Of a stretch of 64,000 nt of DNA, positions 252 through 31,592 are shown piece after piece; positions within the stretch are counted from its first letter, which is position 1; each line of letters opens with the position of its first letter. A program made the translations under genes and the position numbers. The stretch is from IMG/VR virus record IMGVR_UViG_3300045988_162656, one strand, 5' to 3'. Under the pieces are notes generated by a model. It worked only from the letters and a program-made list of their open reading frames with translations, made no database searches and had not been told where the DNA came from. The DNA comes from a virus. Taxonomy: Duplodnaviria; Heunggongvirae; Uroviricota; Caudoviricetes.

Positions 252-1352
252 ATGAGCGAGTCCAAATCGCCGGATGCCCTGAGAGCAATGGTAGCCGGTA
301 CGCTGGCTAATTTTCAGCACCCAACCCTGAAACACAACCTGACTACGCTTAAAGCGTTACACCATGTTGCGTTGATGGATGACACACTGCATGTCGAACT
401 AATCATGCCTTTCGTGTGGAATAAGCCTTTTGAAGACCTGAAAGAGCAATGTAGTGGTGATCTGCTCCGTATCACTGGCGCAAAGGCTATTGACTGGAAG
501 CTGTCGTACAACATTGCCACGCTTAAGCGCGTCAAAAACCAACCAGGCATTAATGGCGTTAAGAACATTATCGCCGTCAGCTCAGGCAAGGGCGGCGTGG
601 GTAAATCCTCCACGGCGGTAAACCTGGCACTGGCGTTGGCTGCTGAAGGTGCGAAAGTTGGTATTTTGGATGCCGATATCTATGGTCCATCAATTCCAAC
701 CATGCTGGGCGCGGAAAACCAACGTCCAACCTCACCTGACGGTACTCACATGGCACCTATCATGTCTCATGGCCTGGCAACCAACTCTATTGGTTATCTG
801 GTCACCGACGACAATGCAATGGTGTGGCGTGGACCGATGGCCAGCAAGGCGCTGATGCAGATGTTGCAGGAAACTCTATGGCCTGATCTGGACTATCTCG
901 TTCTCGATATGCCGCCGGGCACTGGTGATATTCAGTTGACGCTGGCGCAGAACATTCCTGTAACTGGTGCGGTTGTGGTAACTACGCCGCAAGACATCGC
1001 GCTGATCGATGCGAAGAAAGGCATTGTGATGTTCGAAAAAGTCGAAGTGCCGGTACTGGGTATCGTCGAAAACATGAGTGTGCATATTTGCAGTAACTGC
1101 GGTCATCACGAGCCAATTTTTGGCACCGGTGGCGCACAGAAACTGGCCGAGAAATACAACACGCAGTTGTTAGGCCAAATGCCACTTCATATCTCTCTTC
1201 GTGAAGATCTGGATAACGGAACACCAACCGTTATTAGTCGTCCAGATAGCGAATTTACGGCTATTTATCGTGACCTCGCAGATCGCGTTGCTGCCCAAAT
1301 GTATTGGCAAGGTGAAGTAATACCTGGCGAAATCGCATTCCGCGCAGTGTGA
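252..1352 (+). CDS. apbC: Fe-S cluster carrier ATPase Mrp/ApbC
   Basis: 366-aa ORF with Walker A GKGGVGKSS and CxxC motif; near-identical to enterobacterial Mrp as recalled; SD aaggag upstream. Confidence 0.95.
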   Translation: MSESKSPDALRAMVAGTLANFQHPTLKHNLTTLKALHHVALMDDTLHVELIMPFVWNKPFEDLKEQCSGDLLRITGAKAIDWKLSYNIATLKRVKNQPGINGVKNIIAVSSGKGGVGKSSTAVNLALALAAEGAKVGILDADIYGPSIPTMLGAENQRPTSPDGTHMAPIMSHGLATNSIGYLVTDDNAMVWRGPMASKALMQMLQETLWPDLDYLVLDMPPGTGDIQLTLAQNIPVTGAVVVTTPQDIALIDAKKGIVMFEKVEVPVLGIVENMSVHICSNCGHHEPIFGTGGAQKLAEKYNTQLLGQMPLHISLREDLDNGTPTVISRPDSEFTAIYRDLADRVAAQMYWQGEVIPGEIAFRAV

Positions 1353-1357
1353 TAAAA

Positions 1358-1379
1358 AGGCGGTGCATTGCACCGCCTA
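1358..1379 (+). terminator. GC-rich hairpin directly after mrp stop (aggcggtgca / tgcaccgcct); no clear T-tract
   Basis: inverted repeat read directly from sequence. Confidence 0.4.
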
Positions 1380-1389
1380 ATCAGTTCTC

Positions 1390-1779
1390 CTACATCACAG
1401 GACAATCATCAAACTCGCCACTTCTTGCGTCGTTGATAATGTGAGTGATCACACCAAACACGGCATTGCTGCCCGTGCATCCATCGTCATCCTTTGGCAA
1501 TGCTTCCTTCTTACCGGTTCTTAAATCCTCCAGATGCTGACGTGGAGACTTCCGGTATCTTTTTACGCGATATTCCCCATCCAGAGCGCATACAAGCAGA
1601 GAACCATCAACCGGGGTAAGTGAGGAATCAACCACCAGCAATGCACCCTGTAATATTCCCTCACGATGATGACTATCAGCTGCTCTCATGAAGTAGGTCG
1701 CTGAAGGATGTCTAATTATCTGCTGATCAAGAGAAATACGGCTCTCAGCATAATCCGCCGCAGGAGAAGGGAAGCCCAT
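1390..1779 (-). CDS. UmuD-like S24 peptidase-domain protein (orphan, no umuC partner in window)
   Basis: 129 aa; GFPSPAADYAESRISLDQQIIRHPSATYF closely parallels UmuD; Ser and Lys of the catalytic dyad region retained (DSH ... VKRYRK). Confidence 0.6.
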   Translation of the reverse strand: MGFPSPAADYAESRISLDQQIIRHPSATYFMRAADSHHREGILQGALLVVDSSLTPVDGSLLVCALDGEYRVKRYRKSPRQHLEDLRTGKKEALPKDDDGCTGSNAVFGVITHIINDARSGEFDDCPVM

Positions 1780-1794
1780 AGCGTTTTGCCCTCA

Positions 1795-1814
1795 ATACTG
1801 TTCATTTACACAGT
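1795..1814 (-). promoter_or_regulatory. LexA (SOS) box upstream of the UmuD-like gene
   Basis: tactgttcatttacacagta fits CTGT-N8-ACAG with flanking TA; lies 16-35 nt upstream of the ORF start. Confidence 0.55.
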
Positions 1815-1951
1815 ATACATGAAAGAAGCTCACTCAGTGCAACTGATCGGTACATAGCACCAGACAAAGGAACGTTATTTTCTCGAACAAGAAAAGGTAG
1901 AAAACAAATTGTTTAAGGCCACAACTAGTGGCCTTAATGGAGAAGGGATGC

Positions 1952-2515
1952 TTATTGGCTATGGCTAAAAATCAAATGAGACACTTCATTTGGTTGTAGC
2001 TCGTCAAGATCCGGGGCCACAAAACCTTTTCCGAAAGACTTCACAAGTGATTCACCAGCCGCATCATTGTCACCTATTACGCGAAAGTCATACGGCAGCA
2101 TTGCCAGTTGACGACGTAATCCTGCTGAGAAAGTCGAACCTAACAGCGCCCACGAATTTCCGCCCGCGTTGTGCACTGCTGCACTTTTAAAAATCGACTC
2201 AGTTATCCATATCGGTCCATCTTTTAAAGGAAGATAGGTTCCCCATAGTAGCTGTCTGCCGTGCGCTCGTGTGAAATACCGGGCCATCTTCGGATTGCTA
2301 TGCTGCTTAGGAGCGCCTGGTCTGTATGTCTGATACCCGGCCAACATCCCATCAAACCTGTATAGAGGGAATGTAACAACTCCTTCGCTTTCATCGATCC
2401 ACTGTCTATATGGATGCACATCATAGCGGTAGTTACGAGTTAGCAAATGAGCTTCCAGCTTTCCAAATTTAGTCATAACTTCGCATCCCTCATAACACTT
2501 CCCATTTATCACCAT
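1952..2515 (-). CDS. hypothetical protein, possible TOPRIM-like acidic motif (VIGDNDAAGE)
   Basis: 187-aa ORF in the co-directional operon; motif call is by eye only. Confidence 0.4.
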   Translation of the reverse strand: MVINGKCYEGCEVMTKFGKLEAHLLTRNYRYDVHPYRQWIDESEGVVTFPLYRFDGMLAGYQTYRPGAPKQHSNPKMARYFTRAHGRQLLWGTYLPLKDGPIWITESIFKSAAVHNAGGNSWALLGSTFSAGLRRQLAMLPYDFRVIGDNDAAGESLVKSFGKGFVAPDLDELQPNEVSHLIFSHSQ

Positions 2516-3344
2516 ATTTCTCCATAGCTCTTAGCCAATAAACATGGCCACTAGGCATAGTGATGTGAGGCTCGCCAAACTCTTCTCCATGTACATCAAA
2601 GATGTCCCCAACAGAAAATTGGGGGATTTCTGTTCCGTTTTCACCTATATGTGTAATTCGTATACGTTTCGGTTGGGATTGTCCACCTTTGAGCGAGTTG
2701 TTCACTGCTCTGGCAATTTTCTCCCGCAATTGCTGCGTTCCGTGATACGTAACCGCAATATCCCGCAACTCATTCACTAGTTCTCGAATTTGGTGATCTT
2801 TAAGCTCATTATTTGGGTGATTGGTAACAACTCTGGTTAATTCCCCATTGTCTTTTGCTCTTACGTATGCAGCTCTTGTGCATTCGCCCCATGTATTACC
2901 GCCTACATTAACTTCGTAGATTAGGCTGGACTTATCTGTCAATTCGGAACAAATACGGGCCGTGGTCTGGCAACTAGAGCATTCGCAGTTATCGCGGAAA
3001 CCGTGGTCTACTGGCTTCGGTTTAACATCATCAACTTTTTCTACCCTATTGGAATTTAAATACTTCGAAGCCTTGCTATGCCAATCGCTGGTTTTAGGAT
3101 CTTGTCCATCCATCAAACGCCAGGCTTCAGCTATTAACTCATAACTAGTGACTGTAGCTTCCTGCGCATCACCAATAAGTCGTGTAATCTCTCTTTCAAG
3201 CCGACCGCCTAACTCCGTTTTAGTGCAATGTTCTGACCAATCGCCAGTCTCAAGAAGCGCGAGAATGCTTAAAATATCGTCCAATAGAACGGTAGTATTA
3301 TCGACTTCCTTCTGAAACTCACCGGCTACTGATTTATGCATCAT
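2490..3344 (-). CDS. hypothetical protein
   Basis: 284-aa ORF, co-directional with neighbours. Confidence 0.45.
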   Translation of the reverse strand: MMHKSVAGEFQKEVDNTTVLLDDILSILALLETGDWSEHCTKTELGGRLEREITRLIGDAQEATVTSYELIAEAWRLMDGQDPKTSDWHSKASKYLNSNRVEKVDDVKPKPVDHGFRDNCECSSCQTTARICSELTDKSSLIYEVNVGGNTWGECTRAAYVRAKDNGELTRVVTNHPNNELKDHQIRELVNELRDIAVTYHGTQQLREKIARAVNNSLKGGQSQPKRIRITHIGENGTEIPQFSVGDIFDVHGEEFGEPHITMPSGHVYWLRAMEKYGDKWEVL

Positions 3345-3568
3345 TCGTCATCCTCATCCGAGTCATCCTCATCACAGGATGAGAGTAGTGGGTTAGTCAT
3401 TCGCCCTACTTGAGTGGCGTAGCCACGCCGACAGAGATTGCGCAGCACACTGTATATTTCGAACATCTCGGTTCGTTCATCGCCAACATCAAGCTCAGAT
3501 GCTATAGCGTGGCATTCAGTCGCGAGAGCCGATATTTTCTGAAATAACTCTGCTTTATTCACTCTTCG
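3341..3568 (-). CDS. small hypothetical protein with acidic C-terminal tail (DEDDSDEDDE), probable GTG start
   Basis: ORF 3341-3622 overlaps upstream gene; in-frame GTG at 3566-3568 preceded by aggag overlaps the upstream stop. Confidence 0.3.
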   Translation of the reverse strand, partial: RRVNKAELFQKISALATECHAIASELDVGDERTEMFEIYSVLRNLCRRGYATQVGRMTNPLLSSCDEDDSDEDDE

Positions 3569-4130
3569 ACTCCTGCGGAGGTTCTGGTAGCGGCATCCAG
3601 TGAGTTGCTTGCTCAATACCATTACCCGGCTTAATCGTTACATCTCCGCGCCGAAAGGTGATTCCGGTATAGCGTGCGGAGCATATTAGCGGTTCAACCA
3701 GAGAGCTATCGAAATTCACCGAAATAAGCACGTTCTGGCCCTTTTCAGGCATTCGCTCACTACAGCTTATCCAACCATCCGGAGTTACCGGATGGGGTCC
3801 AGCGAACTCGGGAATGTCAGGACCTTTTCTGATAGCTTTAGCCAGATCCAGCGGGTCATCGTAAAGCCAGTCGCCAGTTTGTGGGTGATTTGCTTCTGCA
3901 AGCTGCGCAGCCCATTCAAGACCATCTTTTTGACCTTGGAGATAATCAAGCGGCAACTCTTCATGATTACTTGCAGGTTCTGCACTATCAGCTTCGCGCC
4001 GCTTCTGTAGCTCTGCTGCCATCGCTCTCACGACTTCAACTGGTGCCCTTGCAGCAAACTCTATGTTGGTGATCAGCTCATTAAGATATTGCTCGCCTGG
4101 ATACTGTTTCTTATCGGTTATAGTGGTCAT
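3555..4130 (-). CDS. hypothetical protein, C-terminal DUF551-like region (GWISCSERMPE...VLIS)
   Basis: ORF trimmed to internal start MTTITDKK directly after upstream stop; domain call by recollection. Confidence 0.4.
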   Translation of the reverse strand: MTTITDKKQYPGEQYLNELITNIEFAARAPVEVVRAMAAELQKRREADSAEPASNHEELPLDYLQGQKDGLEWAAQLAEANHPQTGDWLYDDPLDLAKAIRKGPDIPEFAGPHPVTPDGWISCSERMPEKGQNVLISVNFDSSLVEPLICSARYTGITFRRGDVTIKPGNGIEQATHWMPLPEPPQESKSE

Positions 4131-7990: not shown

Positions 7991-9676
7991 TCATTTAACG
8001 CGTTTGAAAACGTATACGCTGACTGTGATCCCTGTGTCTTCAAACTCGTTGGTAAACGACTTCCCTCTGGCATAAACGTAATTATCCATCGTCATCCAGT
8101 CCAGTATTGGCGCAGTGCCCGGCAATACTGCTACAAGACGCCCGCCGACTTTCAGATGCCCCAGCGCAGCCAGCGTGTGCTCTCTATGACGACCAAGCGA
8201 GTACGGCGGGTTCATAACGATTTTGTCGAACTGATAACCTGCGTTGTCCTCAGACCACTTTATGAAGTCGCAGCAAATCGTGTTCGTATACCCTTTTCCA
8301 CGCAGGATATCAGCGAAGAGAGGTGCGATTTCTATGCAGGTAACATCTTCCAGATCGGCGTTAATATAGGCCAGAAGATCCCCACGTCCGGCTTGAGGCT
8401 CCAACAGCTTCTCACCAGGCTTCAATTCAGTGGCTCTGGCAACGTACTCAGCAATCAAGCGTGGGGTAGGGTAGAACTGGTGTGATTTTGTATCCGGTAT
8501 TAAACCGGTAGCCACAATCGTATTTAGCGTATGGCCGATCTCATACGGGAACTGCCAGTGCTTTTTCTCCTGCACGCCGCCAATGAAGCTCAGTGTGCGC
8601 TCAAGCTCTTCCACCTGCGACTTCTGGAGAGCTGAATCAGAGAAGTACCATACGCCTTTGTCTTTGCTCAATCGCCCGTCACGAAGCGCAGTGCGAACCG
8701 GCACGGAGATCGTCTTCTGGATTAACCCGAACTGCTTTGGTGCCCGTGTTTTTGGCGCAGTTCGGCATGGCGCGGGGATTGCAGCAGGCATACTGTAAGC
8801 CAGCACCTCATTCAACTTCCAGGCCACGTCAGGATGTATTTCAAAGTGAACGTTGCCGTTCTTGAACATCTTCACGCGCATCAGATTTCCATCGACGTTC
8901 ATCCAGTCACCGGTCTGGCAGTCGTTTGCCCGATACGCAGCTGATAGCACCTCAGCAGTGCGGTTGATGGTAATAAATTCTTTGTGCGCGAAGAAATGAA
9001 GCAAGACACGCAGATCGTCGATGTAGTCCTCTTTGCGATAGTTCACGCTAACGCTGTCACGCCAGAAATCAGAAATGCAGTCAGCGATTATCAGACGCTC
9101 GCTGAAACCGTTTGTCTTATTTGTCTTGTGCGCAGGACTCAGCGCCTTAAACAAGCCATACACGCGCTCAGAGAGATATTTGTGCCTGTCATTCAGCAAA
9201 TTAAGCATCGTTGGTATGACCGTTTCTGCTTTGAACTCCGGTACACCAACGAACTCTTTAACCTTCATCTGATAGCCGGTTCTGTCAGTTTTGATGACTT
9301 CCTGCTTGCCCTCGATAAATAGCTCACGCCACTCGTCGCGACGGGAAGCTGGCATGATCAGCAGAACGTTAGTCATATCCGTAACCTTCCTCCAGTACTC
9401 GGCCCAAATATTCTGTTTCACCCATTCCAGATCGACGTTATCCAGCCAGACTCGATTCAAACGTGAGCGATCTTCATCTGGTCGGTGGTTTAGTCGAAGC
9501 AGGCGATTAATCATGTTGTGGCGTTCATCGCCATAAACGAAGTCGTGTACCTGATACATGAAGGAGATCTCTTTCTCGCACTCGGCCACAATTTCGTGGA
9601 TGACGTTCATTTCCTGTCGATAGTCGATAGCAGTGTTTGAGCTGGCATCGCCCATGATGGAAAGGGCTGTATTCAT
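7991..9676 (-). CDS. DNA methyltransferase (amino-MTase, NPPY motif) with ~380-aa N-terminal domain of unknown function
   Basis: C-terminal FYPTP ... EPQAGRGDL ... NPPY motifs typical of N6-adenine/N4-cytosine MTases. Confidence 0.65.
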   Translation of the reverse strand: MNTALSIMGDASSNTAIDYRQEMNVIHEIVAECEKEISFMYQVHDFVYGDERHNMINRLLRLNHRPDEDRSRLNRVWLDNVDLEWVKQNIWAEYWRKVTDMTNVLLIMPASRRDEWRELFIEGKQEVIKTDRTGYQMKVKEFVGVPEFKAETVIPTMLNLLNDRHKYLSERVYGLFKALSPAHKTNKTNGFSERLIIADCISDFWRDSVSVNYRKEDYIDDLRVLLHFFAHKEFITINRTAEVLSAAYRANDCQTGDWMNVDGNLMRVKMFKNGNVHFEIHPDVAWKLNEVLAYSMPAAIPAPCRTAPKTRAPKQFGLIQKTISVPVRTALRDGRLSKDKGVWYFSDSALQKSQVEELERTLSFIGGVQEKKHWQFPYEIGHTLNTIVATGLIPDTKSHQFYPTPRLIAEYVARATELKPGEKLLEPQAGRGDLLAYINADLEDVTCIEIAPLFADILRGKGYTNTICCDFIKWSEDNAGYQFDKIVMNPPYSLGRHREHTLAALGHLKVGGRLVAVLPGTAPILDWMTMDNYVYARGKSFTNEFEDTGITVSVYVFKRVK

Positions 9677-12319: not shown

Positions 12320-12835
12320 TTAGTCACAGCATGATCCTGAGTAACTGGATGAACTTGAGGTATCGCATCCACCGTCATCCCATCCAGAGTGACAGGTCGC
12401 TCTACTGGAGTGGTGGTAATTGTCGTCGACGGAGGTGTGGTGATGGATGAATCCGGCATCAAAAGGCTCTGACCGGCTGGAACGGCTACCGTCGCCAGTG
12501 AAACTATAATGAGAACGTAGGCCATTGGTTTCAGCCTCTTTCTTTGAAAATTTTCCATTCGAACTGTCCTTGTTGTTTTTCTCCTTCACTAAAGGCCGTG
12601 CATTTTTCGCTTCGCGTGAAGAACCAGAGGCAACAATCGCCCACACGTTCGCAACAACTGACGCTTGATTATCTAAACGTTCATTCAGCAACCGAACGGT
12701 AGTCTCTAGTTCATCAAGGCGTGACATAACACGACCGCTAAATAATTCGGCCAAAATTTGACGTAAAGAACGAGGACGTTTAGTTACAGAAGTGAAATAG
12801 GTTTGACGTGCCATGTGGACTCCATCCAGTGTCAT
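12320..12835 (-). CDS. hypothetical protein with coiled-coil N-terminal region and Ser/Cys-rich C-terminus
   Basis: 171-aa ORF; overlaps alternative-frame ORF 12307-12558 encoding a hydrophobic-N-terminus Pro/Thr-rich peptide. Confidence 0.3.
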   Translation of the reverse strand: MTLDGVHMARQTYFTSVTKRPRSLRQILAELFSGRVMSRLDELETTVRLLNERLDNQASVVANVWAIVASGSSREAKNARPLVKEKNNKDSSNGKFSKKEAETNGLRSHYSFTGDGSRSSRSEPFDAGFIHHHTSVDDNYHHSSRATCHSGWDDGGCDTSSSSSYSGSCCD

Positions 12836-12959
12836 AAAGAGTTGCGGCTGGCAATCGCCAGCCGCCTTTCTCGTTCCATCCTGGAACTGTGTCTTACCGA
12901 CACATTGTCATCCTGACGCCGATAAGATACATGATTTATAATGATAGGTAAACACTTAC

Positions 12960-13553
12960 TTACTGTTTGTTATAAACAAAACCAATATCTTTCTTGTGAG
13001 GCATATCTGCTGCTGAAAAAGCTGCGATCTTCGCGAGTCGATCACATATTTCATTTTCACGATGCCCGGCGTGACCTTTAACCCACTTCCAGCGAACATT
13101 ATGTCGACTTGCGGCCTCATCCAGACGCTTCCACAGATCAACATTCTTTACCGGTTTTTTGTCAGAAGTCATCCATCCATTGCGTTTCCACCATTTCATC
13201 CACTGTGTCATGCCGTTTTTCAGATACTGGCTATCAGAGTGCAAAATAACGTTGCATGGATATTTCAAACGCTCCAGCCCGATAAGTGCCCCCATCATCT
13301 CCATGCGGTTATTGGTGGTGCTATGAAAACCATCTGAGAACTCGCGTTCCTCGCCACGATACTGGAGAACGATACCGTAACCGCCCGGGCCACCCGGATT
13401 TTTAAGGCAAGAGCCATCACTAAAGATTTTCACGGTTTTAAGCTGGGGATTGAACTCTACGACAGGCGTTGTGGGATTGGTGCGGGGAGAATTTTTGTTT
13501 TTGTCTTTTTTGCGAGTTTTTGCTTGCGGTCGGGCTGGTGTCTTCGTTGTCAT
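12960..13553 (-). CDS. rnhA: ribonuclease HI with basic N-terminal extension
   Basis: [42 protein letters not shown] motifs; start trimmed to MTTKTPARP with aggag RBS. Confidence 0.8.
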
Positions 13554-13649
13554 ATAAACTCCTGAATCAAGCGCCGCGCCGATTTTTCCTCGCGCGTGCG
13601 CACACGCGTGCGTGTTAATAATTATTAAAATAAACAAATTACTTCCCAG

Positions 13650-14552: not shown

Positions 14553-15146
14553 CTAAGCAGCCTTCTTTGATGGTCTTTTTTTCCTGATCACATTCGCAGG
14601 ATCATACCCTCCCAGACTTTTCATGACGTCCAAAGGGATCTTGCTTATAGAGTGCCCAGCGTCCTGACAGAATCCTCGAAAAACAACGAGCATACTGCCA
14701 CCGGGGTTGATGTTTACTTCTACCTGACCCAAATTGACGTCAGGCTCGACAAACGCTACGCGGCCACCAGACAGAATAATCGTCTCATTCGCATACTCTG
14801 TTGCACGCTCATACCACTTTGTATCGAGGGATTGAGGAATTAGCATCACTGTAGTAACTCCGCGAGCCTGCTCACGTATAGCAGCATCAATCCAGGGGGA
14901 GATTTTGGAGTAGGGTGGATTGAGGAAGGCAATTGTACCTGGCTGTCCCCATTCAGATTTCAAAGCATCACGCTCAATGCCTATGAAATTAGGCAGCTTT
15001 GCGTTGTCCTTGTTGCAGGCAACGTCAACATCAAATGTCACTCCAAGATAACGTTGAATGGCAGAAAACAGCCAATCAGGTGTTCTCCAGAGGTCACGAA
15101 GAGAGTTGTCGCGCTTTCGCTGTTTGATTTTTTCGGCTGCAATCAT
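14553..15146 (-). CDS. phage-type Dam-like DNA N6-adenine methyltransferase
   Basis: DLWRTPDWLF and FLNPPYS motifs characteristic of small phage N6-adenine MTases. Confidence 0.75.
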   Translation of the reverse strand: MIAAEKIKQRKRDNSLRDLWRTPDWLFSAIQRYLGVTFDVDVACNKDNAKLPNFIGIERDALKSEWGQPGTIAFLNPPYSKISPWIDAAIREQARGVTTVMLIPQSLDTKWYERATEYANETIILSGGRVAFVEPDVNLGQVEVNINPGGSMLVVFRGFCQDAGHSISKIPLDVMKSLGGYDPANVIRKKRPSKKAA

Positions 15147-30259: not shown

Positions 30260-30497
30260 CACATATCCACAGGATAGATCCTAATAAAGAGATCCATAGA
30301 TAGATCCTTATATAGATCAAATAAGATCCCCGATCGCTGTAAGCCGCGCCACGACTGGTCTGAAGTCATGTTCATGTATGCTGTCAGCGGTAATTGATAG
30401 TCTGTCAGCGGTTCACCGTATGCTGCCAACTGTTTTTGGTATTCTGTCAGCGGCAAATCAAGTATGCTGTCAGCGGTTGAATGACAAAGGTGTCCAC
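30260..30497 (+). promoter_or_regulatory. plasmid-type replication origin region: DnaA-box-like atatccaca (30273-30281), six GATC sites (30287-30345), five 16-bp iterons (30376-30477)
   Basis: motifs read directly; arrangement parallels P1 oriR/incC upstream of repA. Confidence 0.65.
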
Positions 30498-31592
30498 ATG
30501 TCCACAAAAAATAAAAAAGGTAAAAATAACAAAGAAGTAGAAGATAACATCGACAACTTTGAAGAAGGTTCCCTTGAATTGTACACAGGGGAACTTGTCC
30601 CTAATAGCAACAATACAGTCCAACCAATTGCGTTGATGCGACTGGGGTTGTTCGTCCCCACGCTTAAGGGAACAAAATACAGTAAACGTAACAAGCCAAA
30701 TGAGATCGATGCTTCAAAGGAGCTTGTCCAGCTCGAAGTAGCCCGTTCTGAAGGCTATTCCGATATCAAGATAACCGGTCCTCGTCTCGACATGGATCAT
30801 GATTTCAAAACGTGGGTGGGCGTTGTGCGTTCGCTGGCAGAATACGGCGAACCTAACGGTCGTGTCGAGTTAAGCATCACGAAATTTGCTAAGTTTTGTG
30901 GCTATCCATCGTCACAGATCCGCAAAACACTCCGCGACCGGCTTACAAACAGTCTTTTGAAGATCATGCGTACAACTCTGTCTTTCCAGAGAACGTATGA
31001 AGAAAAGAACGTCGACGGCTCTAACAAGATCTCGCTTCTGATGGTGCACCTCATCAATAGCGTGGACTACAACGAGCAGAAAGATACGGTGGTGTTCTAT
31101 GCAGAACCGAAGCTGGCCGAACTATATCGCTTTGACCATAAGGTTCTTTTGCAGTTAAAGGTTATCAATAAGCTACCACGCAAAGAAACAGCACAGGCTC
31201 TGTACACCTTCATCGAAAGTCTTCCAACCAAGCCTGCGCCGGTATCGCTTGCTCGATTGCGTGCGCGACTCAATTTGAGTAGCAGGAATGTCAGCTCGCA
31301 GAATCAGACTATACGTAACGGCTTAAAAGCTCTCCAAGATTTGGGCTATCTCGAATACAGCGAGATTAAGCGTGGGCGGTCGATCTATATCCAGATTCAC
31401 AGCCGCAATCCAAAACTCAAAGTCGCACCGCCAAAACCTGAAGACATCGAACCCAAAAAACCAGATGAGAAAGCTGGGGAAATTGATGCCAAACAGAACA
31501 TTATCAACAAGATAACCGAACTTTCGCAGAATTTGACGCCTGAAAATATCAAGATGATTGAGATCCTTTCCAATAGTCTCAAACTGCTTTGA
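30498..31592 (+). CDS. repA: iteron-binding replication initiator RepA-like
   Basis: 365-aa ORF (in-frame start after iterons, RBS aaagg) flanked on both sides by iteron arrays; lone plus-strand gene. Confidence 0.7.
   Translation: MSTKNKKGKNNKEVEDNIDNFEEGSLELYTGELVPNSNNTVQPIALMRLGLFVPTLKGTKYSKRNKPNEIDASKELVQLEVARSEGYSDIKITGPRLDMDHDFKTWVGVVRSLAEYGEPNGRVELSITKFAKFCGYPSSQIRKTLRDRLTNSLLKIMRTTLSFQRTYEEKNVDGSNKISLLMVHLINSVDYNEQKDTVVFYAEPKLAELYRFDHKVLLQLKVINKLPRKETAQALYTFIESLPTKPAPVSLARLRARLNLSSRNVSSQNQTIRNGLKALQDLGYLEYSEIKRGRSIYIQIHSRNPKLKVAPPKPEDIEPKKPDEKAGEIDAKQNIINKITELSQNLTPENIKMIEILSNSLKLL

Follow-up and report, generated by a model that had tools for sequence, protein, structure and literature searches.

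A predicted adenine methyltransferase with an N-terminal DUF4942 region on an SSU5-type phage-plasmid

The protein of 561 amino acids (aa) encoded on the minus strand at positions 7991-9676 of IMGVR_UViG_3300045988_162656, a 64,000-nucleotide (nt) stretch of Caudoviricetes DNA that is called the window below, is best read as an orphan S-adenosylmethionine (SAM)-dependent adenine-N6 methyltransferase, in which the DUF4942 domain would act as a nucleic-acid binding or target module and whose role would be to protect its own element. We put the probability of this reading at roughly 0.55. Judged by its sequence, the window is a phage-plasmid of Escherichia coli of the SSU5/pHCM2/pLF82 type. The initial annotation had claimed two DNA methyltransferase genes in it, and both open reading frames (ORFs) were recovered on the minus strand with products of 561 and 197 aa, the families of which were confirmed.

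Phages and plasmids get past restriction barriers with the help of orphan methyltransferases, and phage-plasmids of the SSU5 type occur widely across E. coli, Salmonella and Klebsiella. Among the accessory genes of enterobacterial mobile elements the DUF4942-methyltransferase gene is one of the more frequent, and knowledge of its target and of the role of DUF4942 would account for it; DUF4942 could also reveal a new manner of substrate presentation to a minimal methyltransferase core.

In the proposed mechanism, the C-terminal 165 residues would form a bare Rossmann core of the M.TaqI lineage without a C-terminal recognition domain of its own, and the basic, conserved DUF4942 on its N-terminal side would bind and position the nucleic-acid substrate. 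Once the phage-plasmid expresses it, the enzyme would act on the DNA of the element itself, and the methylated DNA would be less exposed to the restriction enzymes of the hosts entered. The parts of this reading are of different strength. The substrate is most probably DNA rather than RNA, with M.TaqI as the best profile match and Erm close behind, and DUF4942 is most likely a binding or recognition module. Protection from restriction is plausible from the context, given the orphan status of the enzyme, its confinement to mobile elements and the relatives of its core in plasmid leading regions.

Methyltransferase core of the 561-aa protein

PHROG 6263 spans the whole 561-aa protein (residues 1-561, E 2e-298), and the sole Pfam match is DUF4942 (PF13708), which covers residues 140-295 with 71.3 bits (cut-off 25; E 1e-19). 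The methyltransferase motifs are found in the C-terminal part only, namely QFYPTP (400-405), LEPQAGRG (425-432), E449, D470-F471 and NPPY (489-492), the last being followed by G-R-x3-H, and therefore about 395 residues lie before the core, not far from the ~380 aa proposed in the initial annotation. The gene, an orthologue of SSU5_095 and CYRAN_90, can be divided along the minus strand into a variable, acidic, helical N-terminal region (residues 1-122; 9311-9676), the DUF4942 core (residues 123-310; 8747-9310), a small alpha/beta connector (residues 311-395; 8492-8746) and a predicted minimal gamma-type adenine-N6 methyltransferase core (residues 396-561; 7994-8491), which is delimited by its motifs and profile matches.

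The order of the motifs, with motif I before motif IV, is that of the gamma class (M.TaqI/HsdM), and QFYPTP, an FYTP-like motif X, stands about 20 residues before motif I. When the profile of the core was searched against PDB, M.TaqI turned out to be the best match (E 3e-8), the rRNA adenine methyltransferases ErmAM and ErmC' came next, and EcoR124 HsdM (1e-5) and 7vru (5e-5), another DNA adenine methyltransferase ranked after HsdM, were matched as well. The DNA-methyltransferase models of PADLOC also match the core with E values from 1e-15 to 1e-7 (for instance, mad2 with 1e-15 and MTase_II with 2e-10).

For the full-length protein we obtained an AlphaFold2 (AF2) model with a predicted local distance difference test (pLDDT) score of 82.8 and a predicted template modelling (pTM) score of 0.70, and a Foldseek search of this model against PDB matched Rossmann methyltransferases only, both RNA and DNA enzymes. 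The protein stops about 45 residues past the VAVLP strand, directly after the last Rossmann strands, and thus lacks the recognition domain that gamma-class enzymes typically have at the C-terminus. Taken together, the core is predicted to be a gamma-class adenine-N6 methyltransferase of the M.TaqI lineage. PHROG 9133, a profile of 1259 positions, aligns to residues 328-560, that is to connector and core, and the connector accompanies the methyltransferase core in some other architectures too.

Distribution and architecture of the family

To survey the family, residues 1-395 were searched exhaustively with HMMER against 1.84 billion cluster representatives (50% identity clusters), which yielded 611 clusters at E <= 1e-3. 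Of the 149 representatives listed, 16 are short or incomplete, and in the other 133 the core always comes after the N-terminal domain, never before it. All of the full-length representatives (133 of 133) thus carry the fusion of N-terminal domain and core, which is therefore an old and obligate architecture and not peculiar to this element. Most of the representatives in which the N-terminal domain seems to stand alone are short fragments, and one that was examined lies 68 bp from the end of its contig.

The family was also found by other scans. With tblastn, full-length homologues were detected in 2,136 of the 72,556 plasmids of PLSDB, which include SSU5-like elements with 80-100% identity and large conjugative plasmids of the IncHI2 type with about 30%. 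A scan of the species representatives of GTDB gave 280 relatives, and a scan of IMG/VR gave at least 558; among the IMG/VR matches listed there are only close SSU5-like copies, so no diversity of context could be drawn from them. The DUF4942-methyltransferase is a very common and catalogued family (PHROG 6263, Pfam DUF4942), which is experimentally uncharacterised as far as literature searches showed.

Besides the full-length genes, there are short ORFs that match only the first 60-130 residues (66-95% identity) and are annotated as separate hypothetical proteins. Examples are found on Klebsiella plasmid NZ_CP138785.1 (L009, 4001-4216) and in P0121, P0123, P0124, P0209 and P0227, and one of these ORFs adjoins insertion sequence (IS) elements and a type I hsdR/hsdS pair. 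Such short ORFs are probably remnants of the gene.

The DUF4942-containing N-terminal region

The initial annotation had called the N-terminal part an uncharacterised domain. This holds in so far as no database explains it; any suggestion that it is special to this protein does not, since it belongs to the invariant architecture of a large catalogued family. Foldseek with the model of the N-terminal domain against 350,542 PDB chains returned nothing significant (best E 0.17, template modelling (TM) score <=0.14), a profile search with the same domain against PDB sequences gave nothing below E 0.4, and lenient Pfam scans of 13 diverse members found DUF4942 only. A match to a known target-recognition domain thus came out of neither the Foldseek and profile searches of PDB nor the Pfam scans. 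In the viral structure library BFVD, the N-terminal domain matches uncharacterised proteins of 247 and 271 aa, together with a 531-aa protein that is a probable member of the family.

In the AF2 model of the N-terminal ~395 residues (pLDDT 81), residues 20-121 are helical (helices 20-48, 52-62, 83-102 and 110-121), residues 1-16 are disordered, residues 124-305 form an alpha/beta domain and residues 320-394 form the small alpha/beta connector. Without exception, the 133 representatives share eight residues of the N-terminal region (W95, S180, H183, T185, N186, W258, H277 and N289), and equally invariant in the core are E426, G430, N489, P491 and H500, together with Q400 and D470. The median identity to the query is 38% for residues 123-310, 36% for the core, 26% for the connector (311-395) and 20% for residues 1-122. 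The DUF4942 segment, with a median family net charge of +5, is the only consistently positive one, and residues 1-122 are acidic (-3).

The ratio of nonsynonymous to synonymous substitution rates (dN/dS) against the SSU5 orthologue is 0.10 overall, with 0.04 for DUF4942, 0.10 for the core and 0.20 for residues 1-122; within the gene, constraint is thus strongest in the DUF4942 segment. The low dN/dS and the conservation therefore indicate that the N-terminal domain is functional and strongly constrained. A chance ORF was excluded by the existence of database proteins with 100% identity, by conservation in SSU5 at 90% nt identity and by the overall dN/dS of 0.10.

An N-terminal domain placed before a gamma-type methyltransferase is an arrangement reminiscent of Type IIG enzymes, and one could imagine a single-chain restriction-modification enzyme with an N-terminal nuclease, serving defence or exclusion rather than self-protection. 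In the model, the invariant D262, H277 and E279 lie on a beta-hairpin, which a helix follows, and homologues have been called "RE endonuclease" in a phage record and "Type I restriction enzyme" in BFVD, both of which are free-text names only. Against this, the N-terminal domain matches no nuclease family of Pfam and no nuclease fold in PDB, the invariant lysine that a PD-(D/E)xK site would have is lacking, and no recognition domain follows the methyltransferase. Moreover, the Type IIG model of PADLOC matches the methyltransferase part alone and weakly (1e-3), and in phage early operons the gene stands beside other orphan methyltransferases. The nuclease reading thus has little support, and we regard it as scarcely probable.

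Genomic context of the relatives

To summarise the context of the family, we sampled 80 loci across diverse members of the Proteobacteria and of a few further phyla, and clustered the ORFs within 7 kb by BLAST. No neighbour family occurs in more than 9 of the 80 loci. The commonest neighbours are a CI-like S24 repressor, integrases, DUF932, YqaJ exonuclease, a protein like recombination directionality factors, and LPD29/30 domains, and other methyltransferases (PF01555, PF00145) are also recurrent. No restriction enzyme or specificity subunit was found beside the DUF4942-methyltransferase among these 80 diverse loci, nor does a restriction endonuclease or specificity-subunit gene adjoin it in the SSU5, Cyrano or IncHI2 contexts. 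Without a conserved neighbour and without an adjoining restriction enzyme, the 561-aa protein therefore appears to be an orphan enzyme carried by mobile elements, to which its family is restricted.

A second recognisable methyltransferase is present in at least 12 of the 61 well-flanked loci. For instance, in early-right operons of prophages the DUF4942-methyltransferase lies beside enzymes of PF01555 and PF00145, and in a temperate Pseudomonas phage the homologue lies beside another methylase and an integrase. In IncHI2 plasmid NZ_AP027680.1 (L003, 3561-7845) a full-length homologue with 30% identity is located within 2 kb of a Dam-family gene, and in IncHI2 plasmids homologue and Dam gene stand a few kilobases from repHI2, which is the same pairing as in this phage-plasmid. 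In a Cereibacter conjugative plasmid, the homologue is located between a DUF945 gene and parAB/mobC-nickase. Some prophage homologues (L138, 10398-11249, and similar loci) are near genes with LPD29/LPD30 domains, the "large polyvalent protein" modules that are typical of phage and plasmid conflict-system proteins.

Comparison with known methyltransferases

M.TaqI and the gamma class, which also include the catalytic part of type I HsdM, share with the 561-aa protein the FYTP-like motif, motif I and NPPY in this order, and the Rossmann fold. The difference lies in the arrangement, because M.TaqI has a C-terminal recognition domain, whereas the 561-aa protein has nothing after the core and a DUF4942-containing region of ~395 residues before it.

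A counterpart of the core alone is YdcA, a 187-aa protein of F-like plasmid leading regions, which is annotated as "putative adenine-specific DNA methylase" and aligns end to end with residues ~396-561. Both are orphans on mobile elements, and they share LEPSAG.G, DF, NPPFS.G....H and the C-terminal strands, but the identity between them over the core is only about 25-31% and YdcA is without the N-terminal domain. In F-like leading regions YdcA always comes after YdbA, a 453-aa DUF3560 protein. YdbA shows no similarity to the N-terminal domain by BLASTP and an hhalign probability of 0.5%, and the idea that YdbA-YdcA is a split form of the fusion was rejected, since YdcA corresponds to the core but YdbA is not homologous to DUF4942. 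Orphan methyltransferases with a presumed role in protecting DNA on entry are over-represented in plasmid leading regions (PMC11541004). The leading regions of F-like plasmids, as in OZ026784.1 (L004, 506-1189 and 5506-7477), carry two unrelated orphan methyltransferases, a PF01555 enzyme like M.EcoGIX and YdcA. Weaker matches of the core are found inside very large phage and plasmid proteins (PHROG profiles of 1,200-3,900 positions; a "strawberry notch" protein).

M.EcoGIX, the best-studied of the orphan methyltransferases in leading regions, is a beta-class enzyme (DPPY, PF01555) with specificity for strand and replication mode (PMC7736820). With M.EcoGIX and M.BceJIII, single-strand-specific plasmid enzymes that produce N6-methyladenine (m6A) and shield incoming DNA from restriction, the 561-aa protein has only the niche of a mobile-element orphan in common, which amounts to a functional analogy. 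They are beta-class enzymes with DPPY and PF01555, whereas the 561-aa protein has NPPY in gamma order and no match to PF01555; homology to M.EcoGIX, which a database entry naming a homologue "YdiA" had suggested, was rejected for the different class, motif and Pfam family. A likeness of the core to P1 DarB was rejected too: a tblastn search of 50,697 phage records with residues 328-561 gave no P1-type phage, and the Escherichia records among its matches were SSU5-like in all cases (4 of 4).

Substrate and role of the enzyme

Several observations weigh against a self-protective DNA methyltransferase with DUF4942 as its binding module. Erm and KsgA, which are rRNA adenine methyltransferases, trail M.TaqI by just two to three orders of magnitude, and the top Foldseek matches of the full model are RNA enzymes, so an RNA substrate retains a small share of the probability. 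Target-recognition domains usually vary among the members of a family. The high conservation of DUF4942 and its invariant S180, H183, T185, N186, H277 and N289 fit a catalytic or ligand-binding site equally well as a DNA reader of fixed target, and for this reason DUF4942 is also considered below as a catalytic or structure-specific targeting module. Since YdcA exists without a DUF4942-like N-terminal domain, the core may not strictly need DUF4942. GATC is close to expectation in the window (274 observed and 308 expected, ratio 0.89), without depletion, and the sequence therefore bears no signature of particular restriction pressure. Finally, literature searches on DUF4942, on SSU5/pHCM2 methylation and on the methylomes of ST131 and Salmonella returned no functional data on the DUF4942-methyltransferase family; in PMC6980539, DUF4942 is merely an entry in a gene table.

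If the substrate were RNA (an adenine of rRNA or tRNA) or protein instead of DNA, the ranking of the structural matches, with TrmN, PH1948 and enzymes of the KsgA/Erm type at the top of the Foldseek search, would be readily understood, as would the weak NCBIfam matches to Erm and KsgA and the second place of Erm proteins in the PDB profile search. NPPY is also present in HemK and in RNA m6A/m2G enzymes. We nevertheless hold such a substrate to be highly unlikely, for the best profile match is M.TaqI and HsdM is matched too, Q-F-Y-P-T-P precedes motif I by about 20 residues, a placement also seen in DNA enzymes of the M.TaqI/HsdM type, the PADLOC DNA-methyltransferase models match the core (1e-15 to 1e-7), and the neighbourhoods contain other DNA methyltransferases.

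A possible alternative, to which we give distinctly less weight than to a binding module, is that DUF4942 is an independent module, either with a second catalytic activity on nucleic acids or as a device that directs a nonspecific core. By analogy with M.EcoGIX, its candidate targets might then be single-stranded or replicating DNA, or a partner in the replisome or in packaging, and with the same reserve they are named here as possible ones. Consistent with an independent module are the eight N-terminal residues that are invariant in the 133 representatives of 50% identity clusters, five of which fall in S-x2-H-x-T-N and H-x-E, the lowest dN/dS of the gene in DUF4942, and the lack of a fold match between DUF4942 and any solved DNA-binding or recognition domain. 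DUF4942-like folds also occur as stand-alone phage proteins of ~250-300 aa (the BFVD matches; PHROG 38825), and the same core occurs as the stand-alone 187-aa YdcA, which would suggest that it is intrinsically nonspecific. M.EcoGIX in turn shows that mobile-element enzymes can have specificity for strand or replication mode (PMC7736820). On the other side, neither a known catalytic signature nor a known family (Pfam) or fold came to light in DUF4942, its positive charge fits plain DNA binding, and a fusion in 133 of 133 representatives is expected of a subunit that the core needs.

A more specific form, which we consider doubtful, is that DUF4942 is an undescribed fold with an invariant polar site and either makes the core selective in an unusual way (towards, for example, the single-stranded or replicating DNA present while a mobile element enters) or has a second enzymatic activity. 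If this were true, the family would be a distinct class of counter-defence rather than ordinary site-specific orphan methyltransferases.

The 197-aa Dam-family enzyme

The second methyltransferase gene is located at 14553-15146 on the minus strand, and its 197-aa product (PF05869, TIGR01712, PHROG 111; NPPY at residues 76-79) is, as far as its family matches go, an ordinary, conventional phage Dam-family enzyme. It passes both curated cut-offs of this family, with 130.8 bits (cut-off 28.1; E 5e-38) for Pfam Dam PF05869 and 113.6 bits (cut-off 97.05; E 6e-33) for NCBIfam TIGR01712, "phage N-6-adenine-methyltransferase". Matches are found in about 2,000 phage records, and the identity to methyltransferase genes of Shiga toxin (Stx)-converting phages is 39%. 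No solved structure was found for the phage Dam family PF05869/TIGR01712.

The reported target of M.EcoVT2Dam, a Stx-phage enzyme that is not necessarily among the Stx-phage genes matched here, is GATC (PMC6602927). By analogy with it, and with 39% identity to Stx-phage genes, the 197-aa enzyme is probably GATC-specific too, and it would add to the methylation by host Dam. The idea that the nonspecific enzymes Hia5 and Hin1523 belong to PF05869 was rejected, because the paper on them groups them with DPPY enzymes of the Dam/DpnM/T4 Dam type; they are therefore uninformative on the 197-aa protein. Two orphan methyltransferases on a temperate phage are a familiar pattern, and their presence in this window is unsurprising.

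Replication origin and methylation

A P1/P7-type oriR followed by a rep gene is located at 30263-30476 on the plus strand, outside both methyltransferase genes, and consists of a DnaA box, GATC sites and iterons. It begins with the DnaA-box-like ATATCCACA at 30263, after which six GATC sites follow within 60 bp as (A)GATCC repeats (30277, 30291, 30303, 30315, 30325 and 30332), and then five iteron-like repeats at 30379-30476 with a spacing of 20-22 bp. The rep ORF starts with an ATG at 30499 and is listed to 31592, and the initiator is called RepB family in related records. The six-GATC origin named in the initial annotation is thus real: the six sites fall at 30277-30335, no other 150-bp part of the window holds six GATC, and the part with DnaA box and GATC shares 78-82% DNA identity with the oriR of P1/P7.

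The order of the elements agrees with P1/P7 (DnaA box, GATC heptamers, five iterons, rep gene), and the GATC heptamers are shared in the alignment; the P7 record is annotated with a DnaA box, five Dam methylation sites, RepA iterons and repA in this order. The differences are that the window has six GATC and P7 five, that the iterons read TGCTGTCAGCGG in the window but GTGTGCTGGCGGG in P1/P7, and that the initiator is a different one. The origin of the window seems to be a mosaic in which a P1-like opening region is combined with a different iteron and Rep specificity.

The oriR of P1 requires Dam-methylated GATC, and therefore a link between methylation and replication, which the initial annotation had suggested, is reasonable by analogy for this origin; no evidence ties either enzyme of the phage-plasmid to origin control. 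Enterobacterial hosts already supply Dam, and host Dam would serve the oriR sites.

This bears on another explanation, in which the role of the 561-aa enzyme is not protection from restriction but epigenetic regulation of the element, in the form of control of replication at oriR, packaging or the lysis-lysogeny decision. It would accord with the P1/P7-type oriR, the six GATC of which match the Dam-site stretch of P7, with the location of both genes on the same strand in the early/DNA-metabolism block, and with the homologue and Dam gene that lie a few kilobases from repHI2 in IncHI2 plasmids. However, Dam is already present in enterobacterial hosts, the target of the 561-aa enzyme is not established, and the family is also found in integrated prophages without a plasmid origin, so we rate an epigenetic role as unlikely and prefer self-protection.

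Host element and gene neighbourhood

The 1,686-bp interval of the 561-aa gene has an exact match (100% identity) in "Escherichia phage CMS-2020a" (CP054387), and the encoded protein is also 100% identical to database proteins. The same interval has 97.6% identity to phage Cyrano, 90% nt identity to Salmonella phage SSU5 and about 82% identity to Klebsiella phage-plasmids, and the product has a protein match of 97.9% in E. coli LF82 plasmid NC_011917.1. In SSU5, the counterparts of the 561-aa and 197-aa genes are SSU5_095 and SSU5_088, both labelled "DNA methyltransferase", and in Cyrano the orthologues are labelled "DUF4942 domain-containing protein" (CYRAN_90) and "Adenine methyltransferase", respectively. 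Both methyltransferase genes are thus already present and annotated in public records.

In the window, both genes lie on the minus strand inside a block of early and DNA-metabolism genes, which contains Ea22/Eaa-like genes, RNase H, a DnaQ-like exonuclease, dihydrofolate reductase (DHFR) and thymidylate synthase. Promoter-like sites near both genes show no excess over shuffled sequence, and the 14 terminator-like sites near them, with 8.2 ± 3.3 in shuffles, are uninformative about these genes.

Most other 4-bp palindromes of the window are close to expectation (0.7-1.2), and CTAG is strongly rare (37 observed and 98 expected, ratio 0.38). At 12844-12865 there is a perfect 9-bp GC-rich inverted repeat (GCGGCTGGC...GCCAGCCGC), which has a terminator-like hairpin score on both strands and is located just 5' of the minus-strand ORF 12320-12835, between that ORF and the ORF 12960-13637.

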